Below, in pieces: positions 38,416 through 56,060 of a stretch of DNA of 64,000 bases. Both the position numbers and the translations under genes were made by a program. The notes beneath the pieces were generated by a model. That model searched no databases. It was not told the DNA's origin and worked only from the letters and a program-made list of their open reading frames with translations. Each line of letters begins with the position of its first letter. The first letter of the stretch is position 1. The stretch comes from an uncultured Parcubacteria group bacterium (GTDB lineage: Bacteria > Patescibacteriota > Patescibacteriia > UBA9934 > CAMTUG01): assembly GCA_947084965.1 (NCBI GenBank), contig CAMTUG010000002.1:15434-79433 (forward strand). The letters run 5' to 3'.

Positions 38416-38531
38416 AGTGTGCCTCGGGGAGCAGTTAAACTTAGCCGGGAAAGTGCGGCTCTGTCAATCCTTTGACGTCGGTTGCATGTGTTTGATTGTC
38501 AACATTACGGGCAGTGATACAATGAAATCCT

Positions 38532-40183: not shown

Positions 40184-42514
40184 ATGGCCTACAATCACAA
40201 GCAATTAGAAAAAAAGTGGCAGGAAAAATGGGAGAAAGAAGAGCCGTGGAAGGCCGAAGATCAATCGACCAAGCCGAAGTTTTATTGTTTGGTAGAGTTT
40301 CCTTATCCCTCTGGAGCGGGGTTGCACGTTGGGCATCCGCGCAGTTACTCCGCACTGGATGCTGTGGTTCGCAAACGCCGGATGGAAGGGTTTAATGTGC
40401 TCTATCCGATCGGCTGGGACGCCTTTGGATTGCCGACGGAAAACTACGCCATCAAAACCGGCCGTAAGCCGCAAGAGATCACCAACGAAAATACCGACAC
40501 CTTCCGCCGTCAATTGAAAGCTCTCGGACTGAGTTTTGATTGGTCACGCGAGGTGAACACCACCGACCCCGCCTACTACAAATGGACGCAGTGGATGTTT
40601 CTTGAGTTTTTCAAAGCTGGTCTCGCCTACAAAGCGAAGACGATGATCAACTGGTGTCCGAAAGACAAAATCGGTTTGGCGAACGAAGAGGTGGTCCAGG
40701 GCTGTTGCGAGCGCTGCGGTACAACTGTCGAAAAGCGCGAGAAGGAACAGTGGATGATCGCCATTACCAAATACGCGGATCGGTTGATTGATGATTTGAA
40801 GACCGTAAATTACTTACCGAAGATCGCCAAGCAGCAAGAGGATTGGATCGGTCGCAGTGAAGGGGCAGAGATAAATTTCGAAATCCGAAATCCAAAATCC
40901 GAAACAAATCCGAAAGAGGAAAGCGCAAAAAAACATTTTGTTAAAGTTTTCACTACCCGTCCAGACACGATCGACGGCGCCACCTTTGTGGTGATCTCGC
41001 CGGAGTTGGCGAAGACATGGATGGATATTGGCTGGCAGGCATCGGATGAAGTTCGTGCCTATGTGGATAGTGCGCTGAAACGTGAAGAGGCGGATCGCAC
41101 GGCCGAGGGGAAAGAAAAAACCGGCGTTGACGCCGGGATCAAAGCGATCAATCCGTTCAATCAAGAAGAGGTTGCTGTTTGGGTCGCGGACTATGTACTT
41201 GGTCACTATGGCACAGGGGCGATCATGGCCGTGCCGCAGCATGACGAACGCGATCGCGAATTTGCCGATGCGTTTGGATTACCGATCGTTGACCGCCCAT
41301 TGATTGCGTTTGATGAAGCGGTTGCCAAAGTCGGTGGGGTCAAAACAACAAAATATAAACTGCGTGATTGGGTTTTTTCACGTCAGCGGTACTGGGGCGA
41401 GCCGATCCCGCTCGTGCATTGTGAAGAGCATGGCTGGGTGGCGGTTCCAGAGTCGGAGTTGCCAGTCGTGTTACCTCCGGTTGAAAAGTATGAACCGACC
41501 GACAACGGGGAATCGCCGCTTGCCGAGATTGCGGAGTTTGTGAACACCCAGTGTCCAACATGTGGCGGTCCTGCCAAGCGCGAGACAGACACGATGCCAA
41601 ATTGGGCAGGGTCCTCCTGGTACTTCCTCCGCTACATCGATCCGCAGAATGATCAACAGTTTGCCTCAGCCGAAAAGTTGAAGCATTGGATGCCGATCGA
41701 TCTGTACAACGGCGGAATGGAACACACTACGCTGCACTTGCTGTACTCGCGTTTTTGGAACAAGTTCTTGTTTGATAAAGGTCTCGTGCCAACGTCTGAA
41801 CCGTACGCTCGTCGTCACTCGCACGGCTTGGTGATGGCTGAAGATGGAACGAAGATGTCGAAGTCAAAAGGGAACGTGATTAATCCAGACGAAATCGTCG
41901 AGCAGTACGGCGCCGATGCACTGCGCACGTACATCATGTTCATGGGGCCGTTCGAAGAACCGGTGCCGTGGTCAACCAACGGGTTGATCGGCGTGCGTCG
42001 TTTTCTCGATAAGGTGATGACGATGAGCGAGAAGATTGGTGGGGGACCAAATGTCGAGCTCGCTCGGGTCATGGCAAAGACGATCAAAAAGATCGGTGAT
42101 GATATTGAAGCGATGAAGTTTAACACTGCGATCGCTCAGCTGATGATCTGTGTGAATGCGATGCAGGATGCCGGGGCGGTTTCATCAGAGCTTTTTGCTT
42201 CGTTCCTCAAAGTGTTGTTTCCATTCGCGCCGCACATCGCCAGCGAGCTTTGGGAAAAGACCGGCTACACCACCCTACTCGATACGGAATCCTGGCCGAC
42301 GTATGATCCGGCATTGATTGTCGATGATGTTGTTACGCTTGCGGTGCAAGTTGCCGGTAAATTGCGCGGGACGATTCAGGTCGCTCCGACCGCTGAACAA
42401 ACCGAAGTCGAACCACCCGCGCGGGCGGAAGAAAATGTTGCCAAGTGGCTTGAAGGTCAGGAAGTGAAAAAAGTAGTGTACGTTCCTGGCCGGATGATCA
42501 ACTTTGTGATTTGA
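40184..42514 (+). CDS. leuS: leucyl-tRNA synthetase
   Basis: HVGHPRSY (HIGH), KMSKSKGN (KMSKS), VFTTRPDTIDGATFVV editing-domain motif; contains an in-frame copy of the heptamer repeat element at 40874-40918. Confidence 0.95.
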   Translation: MAYNHKQLEKKWQEKWEKEEPWKAEDQSTKPKFYCLVEFPYPSGAGLHVGHPRSYSALDAVVRKRRMEGFNVLYPIGWDAFGLPTENYAIKTGRKPQEITNENTDTFRRQLKALGLSFDWSREVNTTDPAYYKWTQWMFLEFFKAGLAYKAKTMINWCPKDKIGLANEEVVQGCCERCGTTVEKREKEQWMIAITKYADRLIDDLKTVNYLPKIAKQQEDWIGRSEGAEINFEIRNPKSETNPKEESAKKHFVKVFTTRPDTIDGATFVVISPELAKTWMDIGWQASDEVRAYVDSALKREEADRTAEGKEKTGVDAGIKAINPFNQEEVAVWVADYVLGHYGTGAIMAVPQHDERDREFADAFGLPIVDRPLIAFDEAVAKVGGVKTTKYKLRDWVFSRQRYWGEPIPLVHCEEHGWVAVPESELPVVLPPVEKYEPTDNGESPLAEIAEFVNTQCPTCGGPAKRETDTMPNWAGSSWYFLRYIDPQNDQQFASAEKLKHWMPIDLYNGGMEHTTLHLLYSRFWNKFLFDKGLVPTSEPYARRHSHGLVMAEDGTKMSKSKGNVINPDEIVEQYGADALRTYIMFMGPFEEPVPWSTNGLIGVRRFLDKVMTMSEKIGGGPNVELARVMAKTIKKIGDDIEAMKFNTAIAQLMICVNAMQDAGAVSSELFASFLKVLFPFAPHIASELWEKTGYTTLLDTESWPTYDPALIVDDVVTLAVQVAGKLRGTIQVAPTAEQTEVEPPARAEENVAKWLEGQEVKKVVYVPGRMINFVI
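40874..40918 (+). repeat. heptamer repeat (AAATCCG-like x4) inside leuS coding sequence, in frame
   Basis: aaatttcg|aaatccg|aaatcca|aaatccg|aaacaaa|tccgaaa, ~85% identical to the trxA-trxB element; encodes EIRNPKSETNPKE, about 12 aa longer than this loop in E. coli/Thermus LeuRS. Confidence 0.55.
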
Positions 42515-42558
42515 TCGTTGAGGGTTATTTGGAATTTGAGATTCGGGATTTGGTGCTT

Positions 42559-43812
42559 ATGAAAGTTGTTGTTGTCGGAACGGGATACGTCGGCCTCGCC
42601 TGTGTCGGGTTCGTGACCATGGGTCACGAAGTTGTCGGGGTTGATGTTGATGCCGGCAAGATCGAACGATTGAATCACGGGGAGTTACCGATCCACGAAC
42701 CGGGGCTTGCCGAGCTTGTGATAGACGGAATGCGTGAGGGGAAACTTCGCTTTACGACGAATTTGCCGGAGGCGCTTACGGGCGCGGACGTTTGCTTTGT
42801 TTGTGTTGGGACGCCGTCGCTTCCTGATGGGAGCGTGGATTTGCAATACATCGAAGCAGCCGTCGCTTCTGTGCGAGCCGCGAAAGAACCACAGACGGTT
42901 GTTGTTATTAAGAGCACGGTGCCGGTTGGAACGTGCAATCGATTTGGTGTTGTTTCCAATCCGGAGTTTCTCGCGGAAGGACGCGCCGTACAAGACTTTT
43001 TACATCCTGATCGCGTGGTGATCGGCACGACCGATCCTCTGGCCAAAGAAGTCATGCTCGCGGTGTACGCTTCGCTCGACTGCCCAAAACTTGTGATGGC
43101 GCCAGCGTCGGCGGAACTGACCAAGTACGCGGCCAACGGATTTCTTGCCACCAAAATTTCATTCATCAACGAGATCAGTGCGATCGCGGAGAAAGTCGGA
43201 GCAGACATCCGCGATGTGGCGCAGGCGATCGGTGCCGATCCGCGTATTGGCCCGCACTTTTTGCGGGCTGGAATTGGCTACGGCGGATCCTGTTTTCCAA
43301 AAGATACAGAAGCACTGATGAAGATCGCGGATCTGAACGCTGTTGATTTTGCGATGTTGAAAGCGGCAAAAGTCGCCAACGACCGGGCCCGGGAACGGTT
43401 TGTCCAAAAGGTGATCGCTACAACGGGCGCGCAGGCTAAACTCGCGGTGTGGGGACTGGCTTTTAAAGCACAGACCGATGACGTGCGTAAGTCCGCGGCG
43501 ATTGATGTGATCGAATTGTTGCTTGCTCGCGGCGCCTCAATCACGGTCTATGATCCGATGGCGACCGAGAATGCCAAGAAGGTTCTCGGGGAACGTGTGC
43601 GCTATGCGTCCACCGCCCTCGAAGCAACGACCGAAGCGGATGCTCTCCTCGTTTTAACCGAATGGCCAGAGTTCAAAAACCTGATACCGGCTTCAGGAGC
43701 CGGTATCGGATTCCCGCATCATATTTTCGACGGTCGCAATCTGTTCGCAGATATGCACCTTGCAGAGAAGGGCTATGCCTACGTGGGTGTTGGTTTGGGC
43801 CAGACGGTTTAA
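42559..43812 (+). CDS. ugd: UDP-glucose/GDP-mannose 6-dehydrogenase family
   Basis: N-terminal Rossmann MKVVVVGTGYVGL, catalytic GGSCFPKD. Confidence 0.85.
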   Translation: MKVVVVGTGYVGLACVGFVTMGHEVVGVDVDAGKIERLNHGELPIHEPGLAELVIDGMREGKLRFTTNLPEALTGADVCFVCVGTPSLPDGSVDLQYIEAAVASVRAAKEPQTVVVIKSTVPVGTCNRFGVVSNPEFLAEGRAVQDFLHPDRVVIGTTDPLAKEVMLAVYASLDCPKLVMAPASAELTKYAANGFLATKISFINEISAIAEKVGADIRDVAQAIGADPRIGPHFLRAGIGYGGSCFPKDTEALMKIADLNAVDFAMLKAAKVANDRARERFVQKVIATTGAQAKLAVWGLAFKAQTDDVRKSAAIDVIELLLARGASITVYDPMATENAKKVLGERVRYASTALEATTEADALLVLTEWPEFKNLIPASGAGIGFPHHIFDGRNLFADMHLAEKGYAYVGVGLGQTV

Positions 43813-45166
43813 GAGCCCGTCGTGGCGACTCTTTTTTGTTTTATTGGCGTTCGTCTTTGGGGTTGGTGTGCATTCGTGGATTGACTCTCCTCTTCCGAGC
43901 GACGTGTTACTTATCGTAGCTGGGGGGTGTTTGCTGATCGCTGTCCTGCCGCTGCGCTACTCATGGATCGTATTTGTAAGTTTTGTCGCCTTCGCTTTTT
44001 TTCTCGGCCTGTGGAGATATACGGTCAGTTTTCCCGTCACCACAAACTCCATCGCTGATGTCATTGGAGCAGCCGTACGCGTGCAGGGAACGGTGGTCCA
44101 TGATCCGGAGCATCGCGAGGCTCGGCAGTCAATCATCCTTGACGATCTGTCTGTTAATGGGGAGAAGAAAGCAAACAAACTGATCGCCTTTCTCCCGCGG
44201 TATCCGGAATTACAGTATGGGGACGTCGTTTCGTTTCGTTGTGATCTCAAAGCGCCGCAACCGTATGATGGGTTTCGTTATGATCGTTATCTGCTCGCCA
44301 AAGGGGTCGTGGCGACCTGTTTTAGCTACGATGTACCGCTCGTGATTTCGCACAACGAGGGAGCGATTATTCGTCGTACGTTGTTTACGCTCCGTTCCGA
44401 GATGGAAGCCGCTTTGCATCGTGCACTTCCAGACACGCACGCGCGCCTCGCCGCCGGGTTGTTGCTTGGGGTGCAGGAACTTCCTGAATCAACCGAAGAG
44501 GCGTTTCGGGAAACAGGCACAGCACACATCATGGCTGCATCGGGATATAACGTCGGTGTGGTCCTTACGATCATGCTCGGTGGGGTTGCTTATGTTTTGG
44601 AACGCCGCCGGGCATTCTGGTTTTTATTGATCGGGTTGATCGTTTACGTTCTTCTCGCTGGAGCCGAAGCCGCAGTTGTCCGTGCGGGGATCATGGCGGG
44701 CGTCCTGCTACTTGCGCGTGAATCGGGTCGAGCAACAACGCCGCGCAATCTTCTCGTTTTGGCGGCAGTGATCATGCTCGCTGTCAATCCACGTTTGCTT
44801 CGTGATGATGTCGGGTTCCAACTCTCGATGCTCGCCACCGTTGGACTAGCGATCGCTGCACCAAAGATTTCTCAACGATTGGAGTTCGTACCTGAGGCGT
44901 TCGGTTTGCGTGAAGCGCTGAGCGCCACGCTCGCGGCAACACTGTTCACACTCCCCATCACCGTATGGAACTTCGGTGTGCCGTCCATCATCAGCCCGAT
45001 CGCCAACCTGCTCGTTCTTCCGTTCATTCCGTATGCCATGGCACTCTCGGCGATCGCTGGTCTTGCAGCCTGGATTGTCCCTTCCGTCGCTCCGTTCATC
45101 GGCGGTCTCGCCTGGGGATTTCTTGAGTTGATGTTACTGATCGTTGAAGCACTAGCCAGCGTATGA
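43775..45166 (+). CDS. comEC: ComEC/Rec2 N-terminal part (OB/DUF4131 plus polytopic competence domain)
   Basis: ~10 TM, ComEC-typical segments (AASGYNVGVV, FQLSMLATVGLA); start ambiguous (43760 or 43775), overlaps ugd 3' end. Confidence 0.8.
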   Translation: MPTWVLVWARRFKSPSWRLFFVLLAFVFGVGVHSWIDSPLPSDVLLIVAGGCLLIAVLPLRYSWIVFVSFVAFAFFLGLWRYTVSFPVTTNSIADVIGAAVRVQGTVVHDPEHREARQSIILDDLSVNGEKKANKLIAFLPRYPELQYGDVVSFRCDLKAPQPYDGFRYDRYLLAKGVVATCFSYDVPLVISHNEGAIIRRTLFTLRSEMEAALHRALPDTHARLAAGLLLGVQELPESTEEAFRETGTAHIMAASGYNVGVVLTIMLGGVAYVLERRRAFWFLLIGLIVYVLLAGAEAAVVRAGIMAGVLLLARESGRATTPRNLLVLAAVIMLAVNPRLLRDDVGFQLSMLATVGLAIAAPKISQRLEFVPEAFGLREALSATLAATLFTLPITVWNFGVPSIISPIANLLVLPFIPYAMALSAIAGLAAWIVPSVAPFIGGLAWGFLELMLLIVEALASV

Positions 45167-46038
45167 AAAAGCGGACACAAAAACAGATCTCGCTTCTCGT
45201 CGCACTTGTCGCGATGGTACTGCTCGCCGTCGCTCAGTGGGTATATGCCGGCCATACGCTCGGTGATGATCGCCTGATCGTCTGGTTTTTTGATGTGGGC
45301 CAAGGCGATGCGATTTACATCGAATCCCCCACAGGGTACCAGATGCTCATTGACGGTGGTCCGGGCGACGCGGTCCTTTCCAAGCTCTCGAGCGTCGTGC
45401 CGTTTTGGGATCAGTCGATCGATGCTGTCCTGCTGACCCATCCCCATGCTGACCATCTCGATGGGCTTGTTGAAGTTGTTGATCAGTACACGGTGGACGC
45501 TGTGTATCTCACTCATGTTGACTATTACACGCCCGCTCTCCCCGAGTTCGAACGAAGAGTTTCTGACGACGAGCAGATCGTCGAAGTCACGCGGCCGATG
45601 ATGATTGATTTGGGTGGAGGCGCACGCATGGACATCATCTTTCCGATTCACTCCCTCGTCAATCAACGGATCGACGACGTGAACGACTCCTCGATCGTTG
45701 CGCTTCTGACGTATGGTGGCACAACGGTATTACTCACTGGTGATGCAACCGCGCTTGAGGAACCCCAAATTGCGGAATCGATTGATGGGGAAGTGGACGT
45801 GCTAAAAGTCGGACATCACGGCAGTCGGTACTCCTCGAGCTCGGCGTTTCTTAAAGATATCGACCCAGAAGTCGCAATCATTTCTTGTGGTCGGGATAAT
45901 AGCTACGGCCATCCGCATCAAGAAACGCTCGAACGTCTCCGAGCGATTGGCGCCACGATTTTACGCACAGATACGATGGGAGATATCCGGCTTACGAGCG
46001 ATGGTAATGAACCCGAGCTTGTATCTCTGCCGCTCTGA
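45163..46038 (+). CDS. ComEC C-terminal MBL-fold domain as separate ORF with own TM anchor
   Basis: DVGQGDAIYIE, LLTHPHADHLDG, LKVGHHGSRYSSS, SCGRDNSYGHPH; ATGA overlap with upstream ORF, different frame. Confidence 0.8.
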   Translation: MKKRTQKQISLLVALVAMVLLAVAQWVYAGHTLGDDRLIVWFFDVGQGDAIYIESPTGYQMLIDGGPGDAVLSKLSSVVPFWDQSIDAVLLTHPHADHLDGLVEVVDQYTVDAVYLTHVDYYTPALPEFERRVSDDEQIVEVTRPMMIDLGGGARMDIIFPIHSLVNQRIDDVNDSSIVALLTYGGTTVLLTGDATALEEPQIAESIDGEVDVLKVGHHGSRYSSSSAFLKDIDPEVAIISCGRDNSYGHPHQETLERLRAIGATILRTDTMGDIRLTSDGNEPELVSLPL

Positions 46039-46096
46039 GCATCTTGACGAGCTTCGTACTCGGTGCTACGATTCGCACAATTAAACGTCAATTTTT

Positions 46097-46561
46097 ATGG
46101 GAGCAACGATCCAACGTACACTGATTCTCTTGAAGCCAGACGCCCTCCAGCGCGATCTGATCGGCGCGGTGGTCGGTCGATTTGAACGTAAAGGGTTGAA
46201 GATTATCGGGATGAAGATGATCCGTCTTGAAGACGCCGTTCTCGACACCCACTATGCCCACATCGCTGACAAGCCGTTCTACAAGGACGTCAAAGAATTC
46301 ATGATGTCGACCCCGGTCGTGGCCATGGTGCTCGAAGGCCAGGATGCGATCGCGGCTGTGCGCCTGATTCTCGGACCGACACGCGGATACGAAGCGGACG
46401 CCGGATCGATCCGCGGGGATTTCTCCATTGGGGTCGCCAGCAACTTGGTGCACGCTTCAGATTCCGCCGAAGCCGCGACTGCGGAGATCGATCGTTTCTT
46501 TAACGTCAATGAACTGTTTGAGTACGAAAAGATCACTGACAAGTTCTTTTACGAAGGTTAA
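46097..46561 (+). CDS. ndk: nucleoside diphosphate kinase
   Basis: LILLKPDALQRDLIG, catalytic His in NLVHASDS; terminator hairpin 46580-46609. Confidence 0.92.
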   Translation: MGATIQRTLILLKPDALQRDLIGAVVGRFERKGLKIIGMKMIRLEDAVLDTHYAHIADKPFYKDVKEFMMSTPVVAMVLEGQDAIAAVRLILGPTRGYEADAGSIRGDFSIGVASNLVHASDSAEAATAEIDRFFNVNELFEYEKITDKFFYEG

Positions 46562-46833
46562 CGAATTTCTAATTTTCCACAGAGCGTTTGACAGATGTCA
46601 GACGCTCTGTTACGTTTACTCCAGATATGGCTATTAACTCGATGCAGATTACGAAGTGGCTCGGACTCAACCTCGATTGTGTCCGTTTTGTCGTACTTCC
46701 GTACGCACGGGCGATGGCCAGAGTGGGTTGATAAGGAGAACAAACATGTTCTGAAGATCAAACCGGCCATCGCTCAACGAGCAGTGGTCGGTTCCGTTTT
46801 CAGAACCGTCAACGCACCTAGGGAGACCACACG

Positions 46834-47196
46834 ATGCCTGCTACCGCCGCCGCGCTCGCTTCCGTCATGTTCGCTGCCGAAGCCTACGTCCAGGGTGCCG
46901 ATGTTCCGATGGACGAAGTCCATGTCCACATCTGCATCCTCGAAATCCTCGGCCTGCGGGACGGTCAGCAGGTGATCCTCTACACCGGCGATCGACACGA
47001 CGCCGAGCGTCTGCAGAACCGGTCTCGCCATGGTCTGTCGACCCCTCAATGCGTCATCGTGCGCGCCGTCACGGACCAGAACAAGGATCGAAGCGTCCAG
47101 GTTCATGTCACGATTGCTGAGCTGATCCGCACGCACGGGGCCGGCATGGTCCTCTACTCGCGCAGCGGCAGTCGCGCCCTGGTTTCGCTGAGCTAG
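46834..47196 (+). CDS. hypothetical 120-aa protein with foreign GC3-rich codon usage
   Basis: GC ~65%, nearly all codons end G/C; SD AGGGAG 6 nt upstream; antisense 146-aa ORF judged spurious; followed by GC-clamp hairpin gccggcccgggaacactccccgggccggc. Confidence 0.5.
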   Translation: MPATAAALASVMFAAEAYVQGADVPMDEVHVHICILEILGLRDGQQVILYTGDRHDAERLQNRSRHGLSTPQCVIVRAVTDQNKDRSVQVHVTIAELIRTHGAGMVLYSRSGSRALVSLS

Positions 47197-47484
47197 AGCA
47201 TCTCGCTCGCTCACCCATCATCGCGCCGGCCCGGGAACACTCCCCGGGCCGGCCCAATCTCAACTTGCATCCAGGAATAAGATCTGTTAGCATCGTTTTG
47301 TCCTATGGAATCTCTCCCTGCCAATTCAGTCGGGTTCGCTCAGCGCTATTGGGTTATTTTTAGCCTCGTCCTTATTAGCTGAGGTCATTTTTGTTCATAA
47401 ACGCGGCCACGTGAACAGGAATGACCTCGCCTAAAAGCGAGGCGTTTGCTTTTTAAGCCCCATTCCGCTAATCTCACCCTTCTT

Positions 47485-48249
47485 ATGCCAGCAAATCAAC
47501 CACAACAGTACAAAACGATCGGCATTATCGGCGGCGTCGGACCGATAGCTACGGCGGATTTTTTCCAGAAACTCTTGCGTCATGTGCATGCGAGTAAGGA
47601 TCAGGAGTATCCGCGGGTGCTGATCGATTCTGATTCCCGCATCCCTGATCGTACGGCAGCAATTCTCGGCACCGGGGAGGATCCGACACAGCAGCTGATC
47701 GCTGTTGGTCACAACCTCGCTCGGGCCGGAGCGGAAGTGCTGTGCATCCCGTGTAATACTGCCCATGCCTTTTTCGATCGCGTTCAATCATTCCTGAATA
47801 CCCCGATCGTTAACATGGTGGAAGAGGTCGCCAACGCGATTCAAAAAAAATATCCTGGAGCGCGGCGTGTGGGGATTCTGGCAACGACCGGTACACGGGC
47901 GGCGAAGATTTATGACCAAGCGCTTGAATCTCGCGGACTGACCGCGGTGCATGTCTCGGAGGTCATTCAGGAGATGTATGTGATGGAAGCGATTTATGGA
48001 CGAGAGGGGATCAAAGCTGGTGGAATGTCCGTTCCAAAACAGCTGCTTGAGAAAGCGATTCGCGAACTGGAACGTGCTGGAGCGGATGTCGTGGTCCTGG
48101 CCTGTACAGAATTGCCGATCGTTCTTCAGGAAGCTTCGCTTCCGCTGATCGATAGTAATGCGGTCCTTGCTGACGCAGTGCTTGCTCGAGCGCGGTGTGG
48201 TTTAGAGCAGGAACAAGAGGCGTTCGGTCGCGTTCATTCCATAGCGTAA
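47485..48249 (+). CDS. Asp/Glu/hydantoin racemase family (aspartate racemase-like)
   Basis: Two-Cys racemase motifs (IPCNTAH, LACTELP); host-like codon usage. Start at MPANQP. Confidence 0.8.
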   Translation: MPANQPQQYKTIGIIGGVGPIATADFFQKLLRHVHASKDQEYPRVLIDSDSRIPDRTAAILGTGEDPTQQLIAVGHNLARAGAEVLCIPCNTAHAFFDRVQSFLNTPIVNMVEEVANAIQKKYPGARRVGILATTGTRAAKIYDQALESRGLTAVHVSEVIQEMYVMEAIYGREGIKAGGMSVPKQLLEKAIRELERAGADVVVLACTELPIVLQEASLPLIDSNAVLADAVLARARCGLEQEQEAFGRVHSIA

Positions 48250-48336
48250 CCCGCACATCTCCCGAACGTTTCGGGGGATGAACGGGGTGCACTATGGCCC
48301 CACCGTCGACACACCCAACCCAGCGAGGAAACCGCC

Positions 48337-49698
48337 ATGAAGCCGAAGCTCTACACCCACCGTCAGGATTCCGTCTCCCAGCTCATCGTCCGCCTGCTCG
48401 AGGGACGGACGCTCGACATCACCGTGGAGGGCAAGCAGGGGCCCTTGGAGCACATCGTGCTCGAAGGTGACGACCAGATCGCCGATCCCCGCGGGATCGC
48501 CCTCTTCTCCGTGTCGGGCACGCTCGACTGGCCCAACCGTCACCTGCGCATGCCGCCGTTCCAGATCAACGGCGGCCCGCCGGCCTGGTGCCGCGAGACC
48601 CCCTTCACCGTCGGGGTCCGTCTCGCCTCGGTCGAGAGCACCCTCGGCCACGCCGGTCACCGAGCCCACGACGGCACCCTTCCGCAGGCGATCCGCCACA
48701 TGCTCGTCGACTACGCCAAGTGGGTGCCGGGTGGTCTGAACCAGACCCCCTGGCACATCGGCGGCGGATCGGGACTCTCCGACGAGACCCGGGCCGGGTT
48801 GCACGACTGGCTGGGCTTCGTCCGGGATGTGTACGTCGCCGACTTCGCCGAGCGGGCGCTCGAGGGCGTGACCCCGATCTGGGGCGATGCGGAGTCCCTG
48901 CGTCGCGCCATCAAGGCCGGGAACGGCCGTACCCGCCTCTTCGTGATGGGGTGTGCGCCGTTCAACGACCCACACACCGACATCGCCACCAAGCTCCGTC
49001 CCGACAAGGCCACCGCGGCTCGCGAAGAGATCGAGCGGTTCCTGCGCGCCAGCGGTGCCTGGATCCAGGACACGACGTTCGTCGTGGTCAGCGGGGACTT
49101 CATGGGCCACCCGGCGCTCAAGGCTTCGCTCCACCCCTTCTTCTTCCGCGCGATCGCGGATCTCGAGGAGAAGCTCGGTCGGACCTTCGACCCGGACTGC
49201 CGTCTGGGCGGCCGCGTCGGTGTCCGGACCGACGAGGAGATCGCCGAGGTCCTCGAGTTCGGCTACCGCATGATCGACCGCGAGCTGGTCACCCCGATCC
49301 GCCAGGCCGTGAACCTGCCGATCGCGACCAAGGCCTGGACCGACGCCTTCCCCCGTCACTACTTCGACGAGGGGGCGGCGATGGCCTCGGAGAACCCGGC
49401 GGTCACCCGCATCATCGAGGAGATCTACGAGGAGCGGGTGCGGACCCGCGAGTGGTACAAGACGGTCGCCGATGCCCTCGGCAGCGACGCTGGGCTCGAG
49501 CGCACCCGGGCCAACGTGGCGATCTACCTCGCCATCGCGCTGTGGATGCGCGACAACCCGGACGCCGTGAACCTCGACACCGAGGTCGACGACCAGTTCT
49601 GGATCCGCCTCGGGCCCGTGCTCAAGGAGATCTGGGGCGACAACGTCCCCTTCATCGGCCACATCGCGCCCCGGGCCCGCCAGCCCTGGGCGTACTAG
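48337..49698 (+). CDS. 453-aa protein of unknown function, strongly foreign composition (GC ~68%, GC3 ~90%)
   Basis: Coherent amino-acid composition in this frame only; overlapping long ORFs in other frames are low-complexity R/P/A artefacts. No diagnostic motif recognised. Confidence 0.65.
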   Translation: MKPKLYTHRQDSVSQLIVRLLEGRTLDITVEGKQGPLEHIVLEGDDQIADPRGIALFSVSGTLDWPNRHLRMPPFQINGGPPAWCRETPFTVGVRLASVESTLGHAGHRAHDGTLPQAIRHMLVDYAKWVPGGLNQTPWHIGGGSGLSDETRAGLHDWLGFVRDVYVADFAERALEGVTPIWGDAESLRRAIKAGNGRTRLFVMGCAPFNDPHTDIATKLRPDKATAAREEIERFLRASGAWIQDTTFVVVSGDFMGHPALKASLHPFFFRAIADLEEKLGRTFDPDCRLGGRVGVRTDEEIAEVLEFGYRMIDRELVTPIRQAVNLPIATKAWTDAFPRHYFDEGAAMASENPAVTRIIEEIYEERVRTREWYKTVADALGSDAGLERTRANVAIYLAIALWMRDNPDAVNLDTEVDDQFWIRLGPVLKEIWGDNVPFIGHIAPRARQPWAY

Positions 49699-49707
49699 GA
49701 GGGCCAC

Positions 49708-50445
49708 ATGGCCATCCGAACCCTGACCATCCACGACCGCGAGATCAAGATCGAGGAGAACCCCCGCGTCTGGATGCCTACCGTCTTCGGCGAGACCCTC
49801 GCGGGCCTCCTCGCCGAAGCGATCCAGCCGGGTGACCGCGTCCTCGACTTCGGCACCGGCTCCGGGATCCAGACGGTTTCTGCCCTCGCCTTCAATGCGG
49901 GGCACGTCACCGCTCTCGACTACAACTCCGCTGCGCTCGACGCGGTCAAGGCGAACGTCCTCCTGAACGGCTTCACCCCGAACGTCTGCGTCGAGACGAT
50001 GCGGTCCAATCTCTTCGGAACGCTCAACTTGCGTCGCGGCTTCGAAGGGGCCTTCGATCTTCTCGTCTGCAATCCCCCGACCTTCCCGGTCGAGCCCCCG
50101 CAGACGGGCGATCGGATGATGGTCGAGTGGGAGCACGCCGGCCGCGACGGGCGACTGCTCCTCGACGCCTGCCTCGACCAGGGCCCTCGGTTCCTCAAGG
50201 TGGGCGGTCGACTCCTCGTGATCTCCACTTCGACCCAGCGGTGGAGTGTGACGCGAGAGAAGCTCCAACGTCAGTGGGGCAGCTACCGGGTCCTTCGCGA
50301 GATCGACATCCCGCTCGCCGACCACTACCGCGTGTTCTTCAGCCGCTGGCGCGAACTGGCGCGTCGCACCGGCGAACCGATCGTCTTCGACGTCGACGGC
50401 GTCCTCCACCAGAAGCTGACCTTCATCGAGGCCACGCGCAGCTAG
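49708..50445 (+). CDS. class I SAM-dependent methyltransferase, HemK/PrmC/TrmN6-like small MTase domain (motif IV NPPTF)
   Basis: Motif I VLDFGTGSGIQ, motif IV VCNPPTFPV, substrate-loop-like WMPTVFGETL; same foreign codon usage; 9-nt gap after upstream ORF. Confidence 0.75.
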   Translation: MAIRTLTIHDREIKIEENPRVWMPTVFGETLAGLLAEAIQPGDRVLDFGTGSGIQTVSALAFNAGHVTALDYNSAALDAVKANVLLNGFTPNVCVETMRSNLFGTLNLRRGFEGAFDLLVCNPPTFPVEPPQTGDRMMVEWEHAGRDGRLLLDACLDQGPRFLKVGGRLLVISTSTQRWSVTREKLQRQWGSYRVLREIDIPLADHYRVFFSRWRELARRTGEPIVFDVDGVLHQKLTFIEATRS

Positions 50446-50525
50446 TAGGGGCCTGACCGCCGACCGACTCACGGGGGTGTCCAGCACTTGGACACCCCCA
50501 TCGTCTTTCTTTATACTTACACCGT

Positions 50526-51515
50526 ATGTACATCTTTGATCTGCATCAGGACATCAGTGACTCCATGCTTTACACCGCGCACGGCGATTTTTGGAAGAAA
50601 AACGATCTGCGCGACGGATGGAACGATTTTAGTTTGCCGGTAAACAATCAGAGCGACTTTGTGCGTTTGGGCGAGTCGGGCTTTAAAGCGATTTTCGGGG
50701 CCTGTTGCGCGATCGAAATTACAAAAGAAGGGAAGGTTGCCCCGTGCAAAGATCACCGTGCTGAAGTAGAAAGACACTTCGCGCTGTACCATCAGCTGGT
50801 GGAAGAGGGGCAGGGGAAGGTTCAGTTTATTTTGCGCCGTGATGATCTCGCGAAGATCAAGGATCATGCTTTGAGTTTTCTCCTTGCGGTTGAAGGGGCA
50901 GATTCGATCGACGATGAATTAGCGGTTGTCGATTGGTATGCCGCGCGTGGTGTGCGTTCCGTTGGTTTCACTTGGAACTATAATAATCGCCTCGCGGGTG
51001 GTTGCATGGAGGATGGCCGATTGAGTGACACCGGTCGTCGAGCGATCACGCGGATGGAAGAGCACGGGATCGTCCTTGATCTTGCTCACATCAACGAAGC
51101 GAGTTTTTGGGACTGCATGGAAGTTGCGAAGAAGCCAGTGATTATTTCGCACACCGCCTGCCGCGTCTGCTTTGACTCACCACGCAACGTTTCTGATGAG
51201 CAGATGCTGGCGGTGAAAAAGACTGGTGGAACGATCGGGATTTTTGGTGTACCGAAATATCTCGGAGCGCCAACCGTCGAAAAAATCATCGAACACATTC
51301 GGCACTGCGTCGGTGTCGTTGGAATCGACCATGTGTCTTTTGGAACGGATTTTGGATCGATGACCGCTCCGCAGCTGATCCCTGGGTTCGAGCATGTTTC
51401 CGATATGCCGAGCTTTATTGATCGGATGCGAGAATCTGGCTTTTCTGAAGAGGACCTGGAAAAGATCGGACACAAAAATATCGAACGCGTCCTCTGGCAG
51501 ACGCTGCCGACCTAA
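50526..51515 (+). CDS. membrane dipeptidase (peptidase M19)
   Basis: DLHQD, VEGADSIDDELAVVDWYAARGVRSVGFTWN, LDLAHINEASFWD, ISHTACR, FGTDF; followed by terminator aaaaatcgagctccagggagctcgattttt. Confidence 0.85.
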   Translation: MYIFDLHQDISDSMLYTAHGDFWKKNDLRDGWNDFSLPVNNQSDFVRLGESGFKAIFGACCAIEITKEGKVAPCKDHRAEVERHFALYHQLVEEGQGKVQFILRRDDLAKIKDHALSFLLAVEGADSIDDELAVVDWYAARGVRSVGFTWNYNNRLAGGCMEDGRLSDTGRRAITRMEEHGIVLDLAHINEASFWDCMEVAKKPVIISHTACRVCFDSPRNVSDEQMLAVKKTGGTIGIFGVPKYLGAPTVEKIIEHIRHCVGVVGIDHVSFGTDFGSMTAPQLIPGFEHVSDMPSFIDRMRESGFSEEDLEKIGHKNIERVLWQTLPT

Positions 51516-51550
51516 CGCAAAAATCGAGCTCCAGGGAGCTCGATTTTTGG

Positions 51551-51756
51551 TGTCTCAGAAATCAATCGGGTGGTCCGGCGAACCGTTTATACTTCTGGAT
51601 GCTGTGCCTTGCGGGGATCGAGTGCGGACAGACGTCTGTGCTACGACATCTCGTGGAGCTTCCTCCGAGACGTCCGTGTGCATCGTTCCGCAAGGCCTAG
51701 GCACGCTTCGTGAGTGATCTTGGTCCAAGACCAAACACGATTGCTTCTGAGACATA
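51551..51756. ncRNA. candidate ~200-nt structured RNA (long imperfect hairpin; 6S-like?) in intergenic region
   Basis: Ends pair (tctcagaa/ttctgaga); nested helices gccttgcgg/ccgcaaggc, palindrome cagacgtctg, ggagcttcctcc; no credible ORF. Identity unverified. Confidence 0.3.
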
Positions 51757-52071
51757 GGTATCATAACAATCAGGAGAGGTAGGTCAAAAAAGTTGCGCGC
51801 AGATTGTGCACGCGTTTATCCCCAAAATGGGGATAAACACAAAAAACCCGGGAACGGGCCTTTTGTTGGCGCTTCAGCACGATCGAATTCTGAACAGGCT
51901 CATGACCACAATAAGTGAGCATCTCCTGACTCTCGTCGACGGATTCAGCCGAAGCCGAATCGATCGATCTGGTTCAGGCGCGAGCCGCATCAGCTCTCAA
52001 GGTCCTCGCTTTCCGCTAAGACCATATCGGAGCTTTCGTTCAGAGTTGACCCTTTCAGAATACGACCGTAC

Positions 52072-52704
52072 ATGAAGCAAATCTATGATAGCATGAGGGG
52101 CATGGACCTCCAGAAAGAATTGCACAGGTTACGCACACCAAAGGCGGTGCAGGATTTCGTGAATGCCCTGGCTTTTAACTTTGAGGAAGATGGTGACACC
52201 TGCCACTCGCCGCGTCAGGTGCTTGAAGTCGGAAAGGCCCAATGTATGGAAGGGGCGATGCTCGCGGCGAGTGCTTTGCGGTTGCAAGGACAGCGTCCGA
52301 TTGTGCTGGATCTTGTCAGTACGGATGACGACTTCGATCATGTCGTCGCGTTATTTAAACAGCATGGATGCTGGGGGGCGATCTCCAAAACAAATCACGC
52401 GGTGTTGCGGTATCGCGAACCGGTGTATCGCACTGTGCGCGAACTCACGATGAGTTACTTTCACGAATATTTTTTGCAATCAAATGGAAAGAAGACGTTG
52501 CGCGCCTGGGCGACGGTGGATCTGACAAAGTTCGATCGGCGCGGATGGATGATCGCCGAGGAAGACGTTTGGTACATCCCTGAGTATCTGTGCGTGATCC
52601 CGCACCAGTCCATTTTGACGCCGGCGCAGGTCAGGGGGCTTCGCAAGGCCGAGCAGATCGAGCGTAAAGCCGGGGAGCACGTTGAGTGGAAAGAGCAAAA
52701 GTAA
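52072..52704 (+). CDS. transglutaminase-like (Cys-His-Asp) domain protein, cytoplasmic
   Basis: GKAQCMEGAMLAASALRLQG (Cys core) and DDFDHVVAL (His/Asp) resemble the transglutaminase-like cysteine peptidase fold. Confidence 0.5.
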   Translation: MKQIYDSMRGMDLQKELHRLRTPKAVQDFVNALAFNFEEDGDTCHSPRQVLEVGKAQCMEGAMLAASALRLQGQRPIVLDLVSTDDDFDHVVALFKQHGCWGAISKTNHAVLRYREPVYRTVRELTMSYFHEYFLQSNGKKTLRAWATVDLTKFDRRGWMIAEEDVWYIPEYLCVIPHQSILTPAQVRGLRKAEQIERKAGEHVEWKEQK

Positions 52705-52732
52705 CAAGTTGCTATTTTCCCGCTTTCCCATT

Positions 52733-52771
52733 ACGATTTATTTCGAAATTCGTATTTCGGATTTCGTATTT
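52733..52771. repeat. third copy of heptamer repeat element, abutting murA start codon
   Basis: cgatttatttcgaaattcgtatttcggatttcgtattt|ATG; reverse complement aaatacgaaatccgaaatacgaatttcgaaataaatcg matches the trxA-trxB element. Confidence 0.55.
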
Positions 52772-54076
52772 ATGAAGAAGTTATTGATTACCGGCGGAAC
52801 GCCTTGTAAAGGCGAAGTTCGGGTGAGCGGGGCCAAGAACGCAGCGTCGAAAATGATGATCGCCAGTTTGCTGACGGACGAGCCGGTAACCCTTTTAAAC
52901 ATCCCGCGGCAGCAGGAAACGGATATCACCAAAGAGATCTGTGGGATCATCGGGGCAGAAGCAAGTTTCCCCGAAGAACACACACTGACGTTACACACCA
53001 AAGAGATCAAGTCACGCTCGGTCGTTGCCTTGTCGCGCAAGAATCGCATCTCGATTTTGGCCACGGCACCGTTGTTGCATCGCGTGGGCGAAGCGATCGT
53101 TCCGATGCCAGCAGGGGACGCGATCGGTCCGCGACCGGTCAATTTTCATATTGATGCCCTTGAAAAGATGGGCGCCAAAATCGAGAACACATCTGAAGGA
53201 TTGCGTGCGACCGTTAACGGACGATTGAAAGGGGCGTTGATCGAATTGCCATATCCGTCCGTTGGGGCGACCGAGTCATCGATCCTGGCTGGTGTACTCG
53301 CCGAAGGGCGCACCGTGATTGTGAATGCCGCGATTGAACCAGAGATCATGGCCTTGATTAAGATGTTGCAGACGATGGGTGCAGTTATCGGCGTCGGAGC
53401 TGGGCGCGTGATCGAGATTTATGGCGTTGAAACGTTGCATGGCACGACGGTTCGGGTAATGCCGGATCCACTCGAAGTTGTTTCGTTTGCCTGTGTGGCG
53501 CTCGGCACGGGCGGGGAGATTTTGGTGAAAGATGCGGTGCACGATCACCTGGTTACCTTCTTGAACACCGTCCGTCGCATCGGCGGCGATTACGAAGTGC
53601 GCGACGATGGCATCGTGTTCCGCGGTTCGAAGTCCTACAAAGGGATTGAACTTGAGACGGATACCTATCCGGGGTTCCGCACGGACTGGCAGCAGCCGTT
53701 TGTCGCCGTACTCACTCAGGCCGAAGGGACGAGTGTGGTGCACGAAACGGTGTACGAAGATCGCTTTGCTTACACCAAGTCACTAAACGAAATGGGGGCA
53801 GAGATCGCCGTGTTCTCTAATTGTTTGGGAGAAATTCCGTGCCGGTTTAAAGGGAAGAATCATCGCCACAGTGCTGTCATTAATGGTCCGCGCAAATTGC
53901 ACGCCGCTAACCTTGAGTTGCTCGACATCCGCGCCGGTCTCGCTCTGGTCGTCGCAGCACTCATCGCCGAAGGCACTTCAGAATTGATCGTCGGCGAGCA
54001 CCTGGATCGCGGTTACGAAAAGCTCGATGAAAAGCTGATCTCGCTAGGCGCGAATATCAAGGTCGTTAATGAGTAG
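52772..54076 (+). CDS. murA: UDP-N-acetylglucosamine 1-carboxyvinyltransferase
   Basis: MKKLLITGGTPCKGEVRVSGAKNAASKMMIAS..., catalytic-loop region; start verified at 52772. Confidence 0.95.
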   Translation: MKKLLITGGTPCKGEVRVSGAKNAASKMMIASLLTDEPVTLLNIPRQQETDITKEICGIIGAEASFPEEHTLTLHTKEIKSRSVVALSRKNRISILATAPLLHRVGEAIVPMPAGDAIGPRPVNFHIDALEKMGAKIENTSEGLRATVNGRLKGALIELPYPSVGATESSILAGVLAEGRTVIVNAAIEPEIMALIKMLQTMGAVIGVGAGRVIEIYGVETLHGTTVRVMPDPLEVVSFACVALGTGGEILVKDAVHDHLVTFLNTVRRIGGDYEVRDDGIVFRGSKSYKGIELETDTYPGFRTDWQQPFVAVLTQAEGTSVVHETVYEDRFAYTKSLNEMGAEIAVFSNCLGEIPCRFKGKNHRHSAVINGPRKLHAANLELLDIRAGLALVVAALIAEGTSELIVGEHLDRGYEKLDEKLISLGANIKVVNE

Positions 54077-54287
54077 TTTTCATGAAAGGGGATTGACAGA
54101 ACGGGATTTTTCTGGTAGAAAGGGAGTATTACATTCCGGCAGTGATGCCGCTCGCACATACAGCTGTGCCGGCGGCGTTATTGTTTCACGCAGAGTTGGT
54201 GTTTCTCGAAAAGTCATTTTTTCAACCATAACCTATTCATTACCTAATCGCTACCTACGATTAACCTATTAATAACCTGATCGCTAT

Positions 54288-54476
54288 ATGTCTAAAAAAG
54301 TGATATTTTCGGTACCAGCACAGCTTGATGAACGGATTATGAAGTATCTCGAGACTTGGGGCTTCATGACCAAAGCGGAGTTTTTCCGTCACGCCGCCAT
54401 TACCTACCTGGACCGAAATGAAAAACAGACAGAGGCTCGAAAGATGGGTGTTCGATTACCACTGACTGCTTTCTGA
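54288..54476 (+). CDS. ribbon-helix-helix (CopG/Arc/ParD-like) small DNA-binding protein
   Basis: 62 aa; KKVIFSVPAQLDERIMKYLETWGFMTKAEFFRHAAITYL fits beta-strand/helix/helix; upstream direct repeats could be its operator. Confidence 0.5.
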   Translation: MSKKVIFSVPAQLDERIMKYLETWGFMTKAEFFRHAAITYLDRNEKQTEARKMGVRLPLTAF

Positions 54477-54526
54477 CATTTCAGAGAAAACCAAAAACAC
54501 CCCGGAAGGGGTGCTCTCGTTCCAGA

Positions 54527-54808
54527 TTATTTTTCTGGATGCGTTTTTTGTTTGGTCTTGGCGCGGTTGGTCGTAGCTTTGCGCTTGTGGCGGTTCACTA
54601 AGCGACGTTCGACGACCCCGAGCGTTTCGATAAAGGTCGGCTTTTTGGTGAGGGTGCGCAGGCAGCGGGTGCACATGCGGTAGGCCTTGCCGGCGATACG
54701 CTTGACCTGGATGTTCACCAGTTTACGCGTCTTCGTTTTGTTGTTGGCATGGCTGACGGTCTGGGCGCTTTGCGCTCCGCGGCCGCAGGTTTCACAAAAT
54801 CGGGACAT
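54527..54808 (-). CDS. rpmB: 50S ribosomal protein L28 (C-terminal extension)
   Basis: MSRFCETCGRGAQSAQTVSHANNKTKTRKLVNIQ.... Confidence 0.85.
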   Translation of the reverse strand: MSRFCETCGRGAQSAQTVSHANNKTKTRKLVNIQVKRIAGKAYRMCTRCLRTLTKKPTFIETLGVVERRLVNRHKRKATTNRAKTKQKTHPEK

Positions 54809-54884
54809 AGGATGTATTTAATCGTGGCCGGAGTGTAGCAATATCGACTCTTTTTGGCAAGAGGAGTAGGATTGGGGAGCAATT

Positions 54885-55565
54885 ATGTTCTTCTCTCTCT
54901 TAGCCCAGAACCCACTCGTAGCCGTTGCCTGGATCTTAGCGATCCTTATTTCTTTGACGATTCATGAATTCTCCCATGCCCTCATCGGGAAGCTGCGCGG
55001 GGACAGAACGGCCGAACGCGACGGCCGGTTAACCTTGAATCCATTGGCCCATATCGATTGGATGGGATTCATGGCGATGTTGTTTCTGGGGTTCGGTTGG
55101 GCTAAACCCGTGCCGTTCAATCCGTACAATTTACGCGACCCAAAGTGGGATTCTGTGAAGATCGCCCTTGCCGGCCCATTGTCGAACCTAGCGATCGCCT
55201 GTGTCTGTGCGATTATTCTTCGATCTTTAATCGCCTTTGGAGGGATTGTCGAGCTGAATCTGCTCGTTGTTTTTCTCGTTCTTCTCACGCTTCTCAACCT
55301 GTTCCTGATGTTTTTCAACATCATCCCGATTCATCCGCTTGACGGCTCCAAACTCTTTTTTGCCTTATTTGACGCTCCAAAGTACACGCAACTACGCCAA
55401 TTTGTGGCTGTACGGGGTCCGCAGATCCTCTTTTTCCTCGTCATCGCTTCACTCCTTACCAACCTCGATATCTTTTTCTTCGTTAGTGCTCCGGCTTACG
55501 CCGTCTGTGATTCATTGATTGGCGGGTCCTGTGTGAGCGTCCTGTATTCCGCTTTTGGAGTGTAG
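54885..55565 (+). CDS. site-2 protease family (peptidase M50) membrane metalloprotease
   Basis: HEFSHAL zinc motif in TM1, second motif region LDGSKLF, ~6 TM. Confidence 0.8.
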   Translation: MFFSLLAQNPLVAVAWILAILISLTIHEFSHALIGKLRGDRTAERDGRLTLNPLAHIDWMGFMAMLFLGFGWAKPVPFNPYNLRDPKWDSVKIALAGPLSNLAIACVCAIILRSLIAFGGIVELNLLVVFLVLLTLLNLFLMFFNIIPIHPLDGSKLFFALFDAPKYTQLRQFVAVRGPQILFFLVIASLLTNLDIFFFVSAPAYAVCDSLIGGSCVSVLYSAFGV

Positions 55566-55634
55566 TTCTTGACGTTTTTTGAGGTCAATGGTACCTTTTT
55601 GCCACTTGAAAACCTGTCATCTTGTTCGCGAATT

Positions 55635-56060
55635 ATGCCAACGATCAATCAACTCGTCCGTAAAGGCCGCAAGAAACCGACGACCAAATCGAAGTCGCCG
55701 GCGATGATGTTTAAATACGACTCGTTGCATCGCAAGCGTACCGAATACCGCATCGGTTCCCCGTTCAAGCGCGGCGTTTGCGTTAAAGTGACGACCATGA
55801 CCCCGAAAAAGCCGAACTCGGCTTTGCGTAAAATCGCCCGTGTGCGTCTTTCAAACGGGATGGAAGTCACCGCCTACATCCCAGGGGAAGGGCATAACTT
55901 GCAGGAACACTCGATCGTCATGTTGCGCGGCGGACGCGTGAAGGACTTGCCAGGTGTCCGTTATCACATCGTCCGTGGTCGCTACGACGCGGCGGGGGTT
56001 GAAGGGCGCGGTCGCAGCCGATCGATTTACGGGACCAAGAAGCCGAAAGCAAAGAAATAA
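55635..56060 (+). CDS. rpsL: 30S ribosomal protein S12 (with ~17-aa insertion)
   Basis: [14 protein letters not shown]...[59 protein letters not shown]; extra [19 protein letters not shown] between KSPA and PFKRGVC. Confidence 0.92.

Follow-up and report, generated by a model that had tools for sequence, protein, structure and literature searches.

The 64,000-nt stretch analyzed here (the window) belongs to contig CAMTUG010000002.1 in the assembly of an uncultured Parcubacteria group bacterium. Between a nucleoside diphosphate kinase (NDK) gene and a racemase gene, it contains a small GC-rich open reading frame, ORF120, accompanied by an upstream leader hairpin, a Shine-Dalgarno (SD) site, and a downstream hairpin made of G and C alone (Table 1). 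A sequence-only reading of the window had described a plus-strand gene for a 120-residue protein with a canonical SD and an 11-bp all-GC hairpin lacking a T-tract. All three are present, the ORF beginning with ATG and the hairpin having no A- or T-tract on either side. The protein is already a called gene in NCBI and Logan records. The junctions around ORF120 are not an assembly chimera or artifact, since an independently assembled Logan sequence matches 40657-55835 at 100% identity. ORF120 has a GC content of 63%, compared with a window average of 54%, and its stretch is the second of only four in the window to reach 62% GC in 300-nt segments (37876-38400, 46776-47300, 48176-50525, and 59251-59550). 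Comparison with its single relative indicates that plus-strand ORF120 is a genuine protein gene and the founder of a two-member, lineage-restricted, fast-evolving family.

Table 1. Features of the ORF120 locus, its neighbors, and the corresponding region of the related contig L008 (window coordinates unless L008 is named)
Feature	Position	Strand	Basis or remark
ORF120, coding sequence of an orphan protein, 120 aa, ATG start	46834..47196	+	Read from sequence; syntenic homolog in L008
SD site AGGGAG (core GGAG, 46822-46825), 8 nt before the ORF120 ATG	46820..46825	+	Read directly
Conserved leader element	46738..46810	+	80% identical to L008 1402-1476 (75-nt block)
Leader core: 59-nt imperfect hairpin, arms GTTCTGAAGATCAAACCGGCCATCGCTC / GAGCAGTGGTCGGTTCCGTTTTCAGAAC, ending 13 nt ahead of the SD	46748-46806	+	
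All-GC hairpin, 11 bp, 7-nt loop, GCCGGCCCGGG-aacactc-CCCGGGCCGGC, 28 nt past the ORF120 stop	47225..47253	+	Hairpin scan, folding
Antisense ORF, 146 aa, GTG start, no SD	46774..47214	-	Judged a shadow ORF
ORF135, syntenic homolog of ORF120, 135 aa, with SD; GC 64%, GC3 0.75	L008 1503-1910		Directly after NDK and leader
Two orphan ORFs, GC-rich (66-69%), with SD, 96 and 97 aa	L008 1933-2556		Absent from the window
SD-bearing GC-rich genes of the window	37990-38415 (-); ORF120 (+); 48337-49698 (+); 49708-50445 (+); 59283-59582 (-)		
NDK, conserved left neighbor anchoring synteny	46097..46561	+	Pfam NDK, E 8e-48; 90% identical to L008 NDK
Host-type mini-unit, right boundary of the GC-rich unit: promoter-like CTTGCA..TAGCAT, then a 25-codon ORF and a hairpin with T-run	47265..47455	+	
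Candidate 25-codon ORF, MESLPANSVGFAQRYWVIFSLVLIS	47305-47382	+	Read from sequence
Canonical hairpin with T-run	47425-47455	+	Terminator scan
Racemase start	47485		
Cassette: 453-aa orphan protein and HemK/PrmC-like methyltransferase	48337-50445	+	1.1 kb from ORF120

The 90% cluster of the window NDK holds one other sequence, located on a 3.3-kb Logan contig (L008) that is the closest relative recovered. Its NDK is followed by the leader and by a syntenic homolog of ORF120, ORF135. BLASTP aligned the two proteins over nearly their full length, with 31% identity over 100 aa (pairwise E 4e-13), and the Smith-Waterman score was 113, compared with 26.6 ± 4.5 for 2000 shuffles (z ~19). A six-frame score comparison was used in place of a codon-position mismatch analysis; the other five frame pairings of the ORF120 and ORF135 DNA scored only 56-71. 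The start at 46834 is supported by a shared N-terminal motif, ASVMF.A, that precedes the next Met. Identity between the two proteins (31-34%) is far below that of NDK (90%) or the MBL fragment (71%) on the same contig, and by this measure ORF120 evolves much faster than its neighbors.

Two readings would deny ORF120 the status of a gene. The minus-strand ORF of 146 codons is longer than ORF120 and shows a weak similarity to an antisense ORF in L008 (28.9 bits over 62 aa by BLASTP). In the Smith-Waterman comparison it scored 71 against 113 for the sense frame, and the strand chosen in the sequence-only reading is thus borne out, the minus strand having failed to yield the better homology. The limits of the antisense ORF are not conserved between the two genomes; in L008 it crosses the spacer between ORF135 and the 96-aa ORF (ORF96) and passes through the intergenic SD. 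It starts with GTG and lacks an SD of its own, its codon position 1 lies opposite sense position 3 as is usual for the shadow of a gene rich in third-position GC (GC3), and it had no match in Pfam, PHROGs, PADLOC, NCBIfam, or plasmids. That it is the true gene is extremely unlikely. It is also highly improbable, if somewhat less so, that the region is noncoding and that its open frames are by-products of GC-rich noncoding DNA, a decayed gene remnant, or a structured RNA. Such a reading could draw on the orphan status of ORF120, on the low AlphaFold confidence, and on the chance of a 120-codon open frame at 63% GC, which is ~4% per frame when estimated from base composition. Against it, the ORF is intact with its SD and ATG at the same spot in the window and L008 despite ~55% nucleotide divergence and several indels, the protein-level score is by far the highest in one frame, and Rfam gave no match.

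Homology searches with the ORF120 protein covered about 15 billion proteins overall. A word-indexed search of 5.8e9 clusters returned only ORF120 itself, and an exhaustive phmmer search of 1.84e9 representatives found no homolog. The sole extra match, P0002, was rejected: it is a translated tandem repeat in which a single weak match, present seven times, inflates the E-value. There was no match in Pfam, NCBIfam, PHROGs, or PADLOC, even at E up to 10, none in a PDB profile search, and no paralog in the window or the fetched loci. The earlier description of the gene as an orphan is upheld by these searches, its single relative, ORF135, having been reached through synteny.

The best-conserved stretch of the family is VHVHICILEILGLRDGQQVILYTGD in ORF120 and VFIHPSLLEVLGFKRGQEIMVFSGD in ORF135. 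AlphaFold models from the single sequence and from the two-sequence alignment share the same order of secondary structure, with a strand-helix-strand at residues 29-55. These residues were placed by hhalign onto AbrB residues 15-42 (beta2-helix-beta3) with E 0.012 and a probability of 3.6%, using as target a hand-typed four-sequence AbrB/Abh/SpoVT/MazE alignment. The Pfam family Molydop_binding, a double-psi barrel, matches ORF135 at the same motif with E 0.064. The features shared with AbrB/SpoVT/MazE swapped-hairpin and double-psi cradle-loop barrels, all within residues 29-55, are a hydrophobic strand, a short "LLExLG" helix, and an "xGxxV" strand. ORF120 differs from these proteins in its nonsignificant scores, in a motif that is not N-terminal (unlike AbrB and MazE), and in having no detectable duplication, no PDB match, and no adjacent toxin gene. 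An internal duplication consisting of two beta-alpha-beta halves was considered and dropped when no alignment was obtained. The modeled resemblance to AbrB and cradle-loop folds is a weak lead, not membership. With low confidence, ORF120 would most likely be a small soluble α/β protein with a beta-helix-beta motif, "LLE(I/V)LG(L/F)(R/K)xGQx(V/I)", resembling these nucleic acid-binding barrels, and, equally tentatively, it might act as an accessory regulator or in an antitoxin-like capacity, and not as an enzyme. The adjacent, co-oriented, known toxin gene of a type II toxin-antitoxin pair was not found; ORF120 is monocistronic, and the two downstream ORFs in L008 (ORF96 and the 97-aa ORF97) match no family.

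The leader preceding ORF120 is far more conserved between the window and L008 (80%) than the neutral fourfold-degenerate sites of the adjacent NDK, which are 41.5% identical versus 30.5% expected at random. Its 3' arm, GTGGTCGGTTCCGTTTTCAGAAC, is identical at 23 of 23 positions. By this comparison the leader is under constraint. RNAalifold predicts a consensus hairpin of 26 pairs for the two genomes, with one compensatory change from U-A to A-U; single-sequence folds disagree between the window and L008. The element occurs once in the window, and Rfam gave no match to the hairpin, the best hit (malK-III, E 0.77) being located upstream of it. A terminator/antiterminator arrangement is possible, in which GCGATGGCC (46711-19) could pair, as judged by eye, with GGCCATCGC (46765-73); RNAalifold backs only the long hairpin and not this alternative. 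Because only 13 nt lie between the hairpin and the SD, there is no room for a promoter, and transcription would enter ORF120 from upstream. The conserved hairpin may control read-through, processing, or mRNA stability. The minus strand of the leader 5' arm (46738-46770) can be read as the peptide MAGLIFRTCLF, or MAGLMFTTCLF in L008, with three of the five codon differences synonymous. The frames diverge past 11 codons, and this reading probably reflects nucleotide conservation only.

The GGAG of the ORF120 SD is retained in the aligned L008 sequence (CCTTCGGAGAC). In a survey of 51 long host ORFs, in which any 4-mer SD core at -18 to -5 was counted (background rate 8.6%), only seven had a core, compared with five of five GC-rich genes (Fisher p = 2e-4). 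The claim that host genes mostly lack an SD is therefore confirmed, and the link between SD use and GC richness extends more widely than the sequence-only reading had proposed, to all five GC-rich genes. Many host genes have a -10-like box 6-10 nt ahead of the ATG (e.g., starts at 38532, 50526, 52072, and 59710), pointing to leaderless or SD-independent initiation as a common mode in this organism. The GC-rich genes of L008, and those of a second relative, L002, also carry an SD, whereas their host neighbors do not. A role for the SD in compensating for stronger mRNA structure at GC-rich starts was considered and rejected, because their folding energies do not depart from the range of host genes. 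Translation of ORF120 would be SD-dependent.

The hairpin that follows ORF120 has a ΔG of -26.9 kcal/mol, making it the most stable perfect hairpin of the 64-kb window, and has the sole 100% GC stem there. The 101-nt region around it folds with z = -5.0 versus shuffles. There is no copy elsewhere in the window, and it is not a repeated element. Host terminators are of a different type (CAAAAA-stem-TTTTTG). As expected of a canonical Rho-independent terminator, the ORF120 structure is a GC-rich stem-loop soon after the stop codon, but the U-tract of ~7-9 nt directly 3' of the stem is missing: the tail, CCAATCTCAA, has two T residues in 10, and the terminator scan did not pick the hairpin up. 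A canonical terminator lies 170 nt beyond. The long, perfect, GC-only stem near the stop codon, with no U-tract, is reminiscent of the "I-shaped" hairpin-only terminators that have been suggested in mycobacteria and further bacteria of high GC content. The host of ORF120 differs from those organisms in having ~54% GC and canonical A-tract/stem/T-tract terminators of its own. In vitro, termination at hairpins lacking a U-tract is poor, and mycobacterial RNA polymerase still requires the U-tract (PMC3993855), so the ORF120 hairpin may be a 3' stabilizer or pause site rather than a terminator. It may thus be described as a putative 3'-end stabilizer, pause site, or noncanonical terminator that would protect or define the 3' end of ORF120.

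The base composition of ORF120 deviates from that of the host. Its GC fractions at positions 1, 2, and 3 are 0.70, 0.43, and 0.77 (GC3 0.769), compared with ~0.59 and ~0.40 at host positions 1 and 2. The enrichment at positions 1 and 2 would be kept through a composition rich in Ala, Arg, Gly, and Val. In host segments of 119 codons, GC3 has a mean of 0.619 (SD of the distribution 0.060, maximum 0.782), and only 0.3% reach the value of ORF120. The two genes of the downstream cassette have GC3 values of 0.927 and 0.878, between which and the host ORF120 is intermediate. Synonymous codon usage was scored as a log-likelihood ratio of a cassette model versus a host model. The ratio was +0.03 for ORF120, -0.40 ± 0.12 for host segments (maximum -0.07), and +0.34 ± 0.07 for cassette segments (minimum +0.23). 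ORF120 thus falls between the two distributions and beyond both, and its deviation is moderate. Highly expressed host genes (EF-G, EF-Tu, and ribosomal proteins) do not show this type of bias. The sequence-only reading had assigned ORF120 the same extreme preference for G/C-ending codons as the cassette. Its codon usage is indeed not host-typical, lying above the host maximum, but neither is it cassette-like. ORF120 does carry signals foreign to this genome (an SD, a U-less GC hairpin, and atypical codon usage) and has them in common with the cassette; equal codon bias was not supported. The number of GC3-rich genes had also been underestimated, since two more with an SD are found at 37990-38415 and 59283-59582, both on the minus strand.

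The relationship between ORF120 and the cassette was resolved by gene order in the two relatives. L008 is arranged as MBL-NDK-leader-ORF135-ORF96-ORF97, followed by two hairpins and then by sequence 69% identical to window 51546-52079. ORF135, ORF96, and ORF97 form an apparent three-gene operon that ends in a U-less GC hairpin and then the second hairpin. The racemase, the 453-aa gene, the methyltransferase, and the M19 peptidase are all absent from L008. L002 has the order racemase-436aa-methyltransferase-M19, a conserved block with conserved junctions, behind a different upstream gene and with no ORF120. The 436-aa protein is the only homolog of the 453-aa protein (50% identity). Identity between L002 and the window is 58% and 67% for the flanking proteins and 50-51% for those of the cassette; both the cassette 3' hairpin (GGGGGTGT(C/T)CA..TGGACACCCCC) and the M19 -10 region are conserved. 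Because L008 has an ORF120 homolog without the cassette and L002 has the cassette block without ORF120, the two are independent units. This finding largely refutes the proposal of a mosaic island spanning 46.6-50.5 kb and bracketing the racemase.

As for the insertion of ORF120 also suggested from the window sequence, a recent date is not supported by the comparison with relatives: the closest of them, L008, offers no empty site and instead carries the homolog at the same place behind the same leader. The fourfold-degenerate sites of NDK are near saturation between the two genomes, so the ORF120 family has been at this site for a long time, since before the window and L008 lineages split. Synteny accordingly places the ORF120 unit at this position in their common ancestor. 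Judged from these loci, the interval from NDK to the gene at 52072 is a variable region with the ORF120-family gene as its fixed left edge; to the right of it are either two further GC-rich orphan genes (L008) or the block of small ORF, racemase, 453-aa gene, methyltransferase, and M19 (window).

The cassette spans 48292-50487 in the window and 3261-5329 in L002, whose genome has ~42% GC. It lies 15-18 GC points above its flanks in both, although the flanks are saturated. Its GC3 values are 0.93 and 0.88 in the window host (~0.61) and 0.69 and 0.67 in the L002 host (~0.33), an excess of ~+0.3 in both. This persistence in two genomes with saturated flanks is not predicted by simple drift to host composition after a single transfer. 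The cassette resembles ORF120 in being GC-rich, in its SD and GC-rich 3' hairpin, in its orphan status (one homolog, in L002), and in being GC-rich in a second diverged genome. It differs in its higher GC3 (0.88-0.93), in belonging to a racemase-cassette-M19 unit, and in its absence from L008, where the ORF120 homolog is present. Gene calling on L001, the Logan contig of the window itself, placed a 726-aa antisense shadow ORF over the cassette; both plus-strand proteins are missing from the protein collection.

Several further features were observed in the window and related contigs. In L002 (2290-2480), a 33-codon hydrophobic ORF (MTQTEMQYWSSFIVLSTSLISIWVFFILNVSAG) lies ahead of the racemase, as the candidate 25-codon ORF does in the window; the hairpins after both small ORFs have the same CCTCGC/GCGAGG stem and a T-run (GCCTCGC..GCGAGG plus T7 in L002). 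In both genomes, the racemase may be preceded by a gene for a small hydrophobic peptide. The block shared by window 51546-52079 and L008 2637-3151 (~530 nt, 69% conserved) is noncoding; it lacks a consistent reading frame and gave no match in Rfam. Within it is a palindrome of two DnaA-box-like 9-mers (TTATCCCCA / TGGGGATAA) at 51816-51836. DnaA boxes do not cluster in the block, and an origin of replication (oriC) is unlikely. The GC-rich islet at 37876-38470 contains a 141-aa orphan ORF (37990-38415) with GC3 of 0.82, a GAGG SD, a TTGACA-18-TAAGTT promoter-like site, and a hairpin (37937-37965) of 91% GC that is followed by T7 on the coding strand; its protein had no Pfam, plasmid, or IMG/VR match. 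In the islet at 59251-59660, the gene at 59283-59582 encodes a 99-aa hydrophobic orphan, probably a membrane protein, with GC3 of 0.93; its AAGGAG SD is accompanied by a promoter-like sequence, TTGACT-17-TATGAA, and its 3' hairpin by a T-run. Public annotations begin this gene at an earlier start, giving 135 aa. Contigs with related racemases (53-54% identity) have segments 15-25 GC points above their surroundings (L005 2000-4000, L006 4000-7200, and L007 8001-8726). In L005 and L006, these segments contain Pfam-less genes with an SD-like motif and small ORFs, beside racemase and peptidase genes, and the GC-rich segment of L007 is the racemase gene itself. The two halves of a 636-aa protein in L006 look similar by eye, unaligned, to the 212-aa and 390-aa ORFs of L005.

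Relatives of the window were found solely through exact-cluster look-ups. Pattern scans of GTDB species representatives with the racemase or an M19 alignment returned no relative, and a scan of JGI metagenomes returned one distant M19 only. This lineage has hardly been sampled: most window proteins stand alone in their 90% clusters, and the closest racemase homologs with a name (44-48% identity) come from Candidate Phyla Radiation bacteria.

Collectively, these results point, with moderate confidence, to ORF120 being a genuine, lineage-restricted, fast-evolving gene that forms its own compact expression unit 3' of NDK and that is old and probably an ancient acquisition. The unit would comprise the 59-nt leader hairpin, the SD site, the 120-codon ORF, and the very stable all-GC 3' hairpin, and ORF120 may be one member of a GC-rich, SD-bearing orphan class with at least five genes in the window, set within an SD-free and often leaderless genome. 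An SD, a non-host hairpin, and codon usage that deviate together form a classical signature of foreign DNA. The existence of an SD-bearing GC-rich class inside an SD-free genome makes it most likely that the lineage acquired ORF120 long ago from a GC-richer, SD-using source that has not been sampled, after which its codon usage may have partly drifted toward that of the host. Phage "morons," as Juhala, Hendrix, and colleagues reportedly described them in 2000, are autonomous promoter-gene-terminator units with a base composition unlike that of their neighbors. Like such islets, ORF120 consists of one small gene equipped with a translation signal and a 3' hairpin of its own, shows deviant GC content and codon usage, and lies between unrelated host genes in a variable locus. 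Unlike them, it is not in a prophage, has no recognized promoter and no known donor pool, and is present in the nearest relative, predating the split. Of the marks of a recently transferred islet, only the atypical composition was found; an empty site, donor homologs, and mobility signatures were not. The borders of ORF120 have no meaningful direct repeats or att-like duplications and no integrase, and the nearest tRNAs are >22 kb away. An integron cassette was likewise not supported: there is no attC with RYYYAAC/GTTRRRY cores and no integrase/attI, the hairpin is a perfect GC palindrome, and the upstream genes are ComEC/MBL and NDK. Several points weigh against this interpretation. No donor and no mobile-element signature were found for ORF120, and an ancient acquisition is indistinguishable from a native gene of unusual composition. 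The GC3 excess of the L008 homolog over its host genes is small (0.75 vs. 0.66-0.70). The family has only two members, codon-position mismatch counts are uninformative on sense versus antisense at their divergence, and no promoter was recognized. For the protein, the AlphaFold pLDDT was 49 from the single sequence and 44 from the two-sequence alignment, Foldseek of the model against the PDB gave noise with no match below E 0.28, and the AbrB-like lead falls below every family threshold.

Two other origins were considered. In one, ORF120 and the cassette at 48.3 kb would be a single mosaic island, or twin recent insertions from the same high-GC donor of actinobacterial type, on either side of a host racemase. 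Both are indeed GC-rich and SD-bearing, end in GC-rich hairpins, and lie on the same strand 1.1 kb apart. Their separate occurrence in L008 and L002, the codon usage of ORF120 outside the cassette range, its age beyond a near-saturated divergence, and the lack of flanking repeats, integrase, or tRNA at ORF120 make this very unlikely. An actinobacterial or other identifiable high-GC donor found no support either: large protein searches gave no donor for ORF120 or the 453-aa protein, and no homolog was found in any sampled high-GC lineage. A tblastn search of PLSDB plasmids with ORF120, ORF135, the antisense ORF, islets A and D, and the 453-aa protein gave no match, nor did IMG/VR scans with the ORF120/ORF135 alignment and islets A and D. 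In the other, ORF120 would never have been foreign and would be a native rapid evolver, its GC content reflecting amino acid composition and a gene- or locus-specific force (such as GC-biased gene conversion at a recombination hotspot or mRNA selection) and its SD an adaptation of the gene class. The presence of the family at the same site in two diverged genomes is in keeping with this origin, as are the visibly variable locus, the absence of both a donor and a mobility signature, and the large share of the GC excess that falls in codon positions 1 and 2. The cassette GC3 excess, kept in two genomes with host GC3 of ~0.6 and ~0.3, argues for something other than recent transfer, and GC-rich orphan segments recur in other relatives. 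The absence of the bias from highly expressed host genes speaks against a native origin, as does the joint deviation of SD, hairpin style, and codon usage; the initiation regions of GC-rich genes are also no more structured than those of the host, so the SD is not obviously needed as compensation. A native origin is therefore rather unlikely, though to be taken far more seriously than the mosaic island.

An ancient acquisition of ORF120 thus remains the favored interpretation. In itself, ORF120 provides a new two-member orphan family with a strongly conserved leader hairpin, which helps annotation and settles the strand, and it illustrates that gene callers are prone to antisense miscalls in these GC-rich patches. 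Its interest lies mainly in its gene class. GC richness, SD use, and orphan status coincide in at least five genes of the window and in several relatives, within genomes that do not otherwise use an SD, and the GC excess outlasts a divergence that saturates synonymous sites. It is conceivable, though doubtful at present, that these genes form a persistent class of SD-dependent orphans, 10-25 GC points above the genome, of which ORF120 is one member and around which the genome is SD-free and largely leaderless. If so, a gene-specific force, and not recent transfer, would maintain a second compositional and translational regime in one genome. Candidate forces would be biased gene conversion at hotspots, selection linked to translation that depends on an SD, or ongoing replacement of alleles by those of an unsampled partner. 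If the pattern proves to be genome-wide, it would challenge the reading of GC-rich patches as recent transfers drifting to host composition and would provide a setting in nature where two modes of translation initiation could be studied within a single cell.

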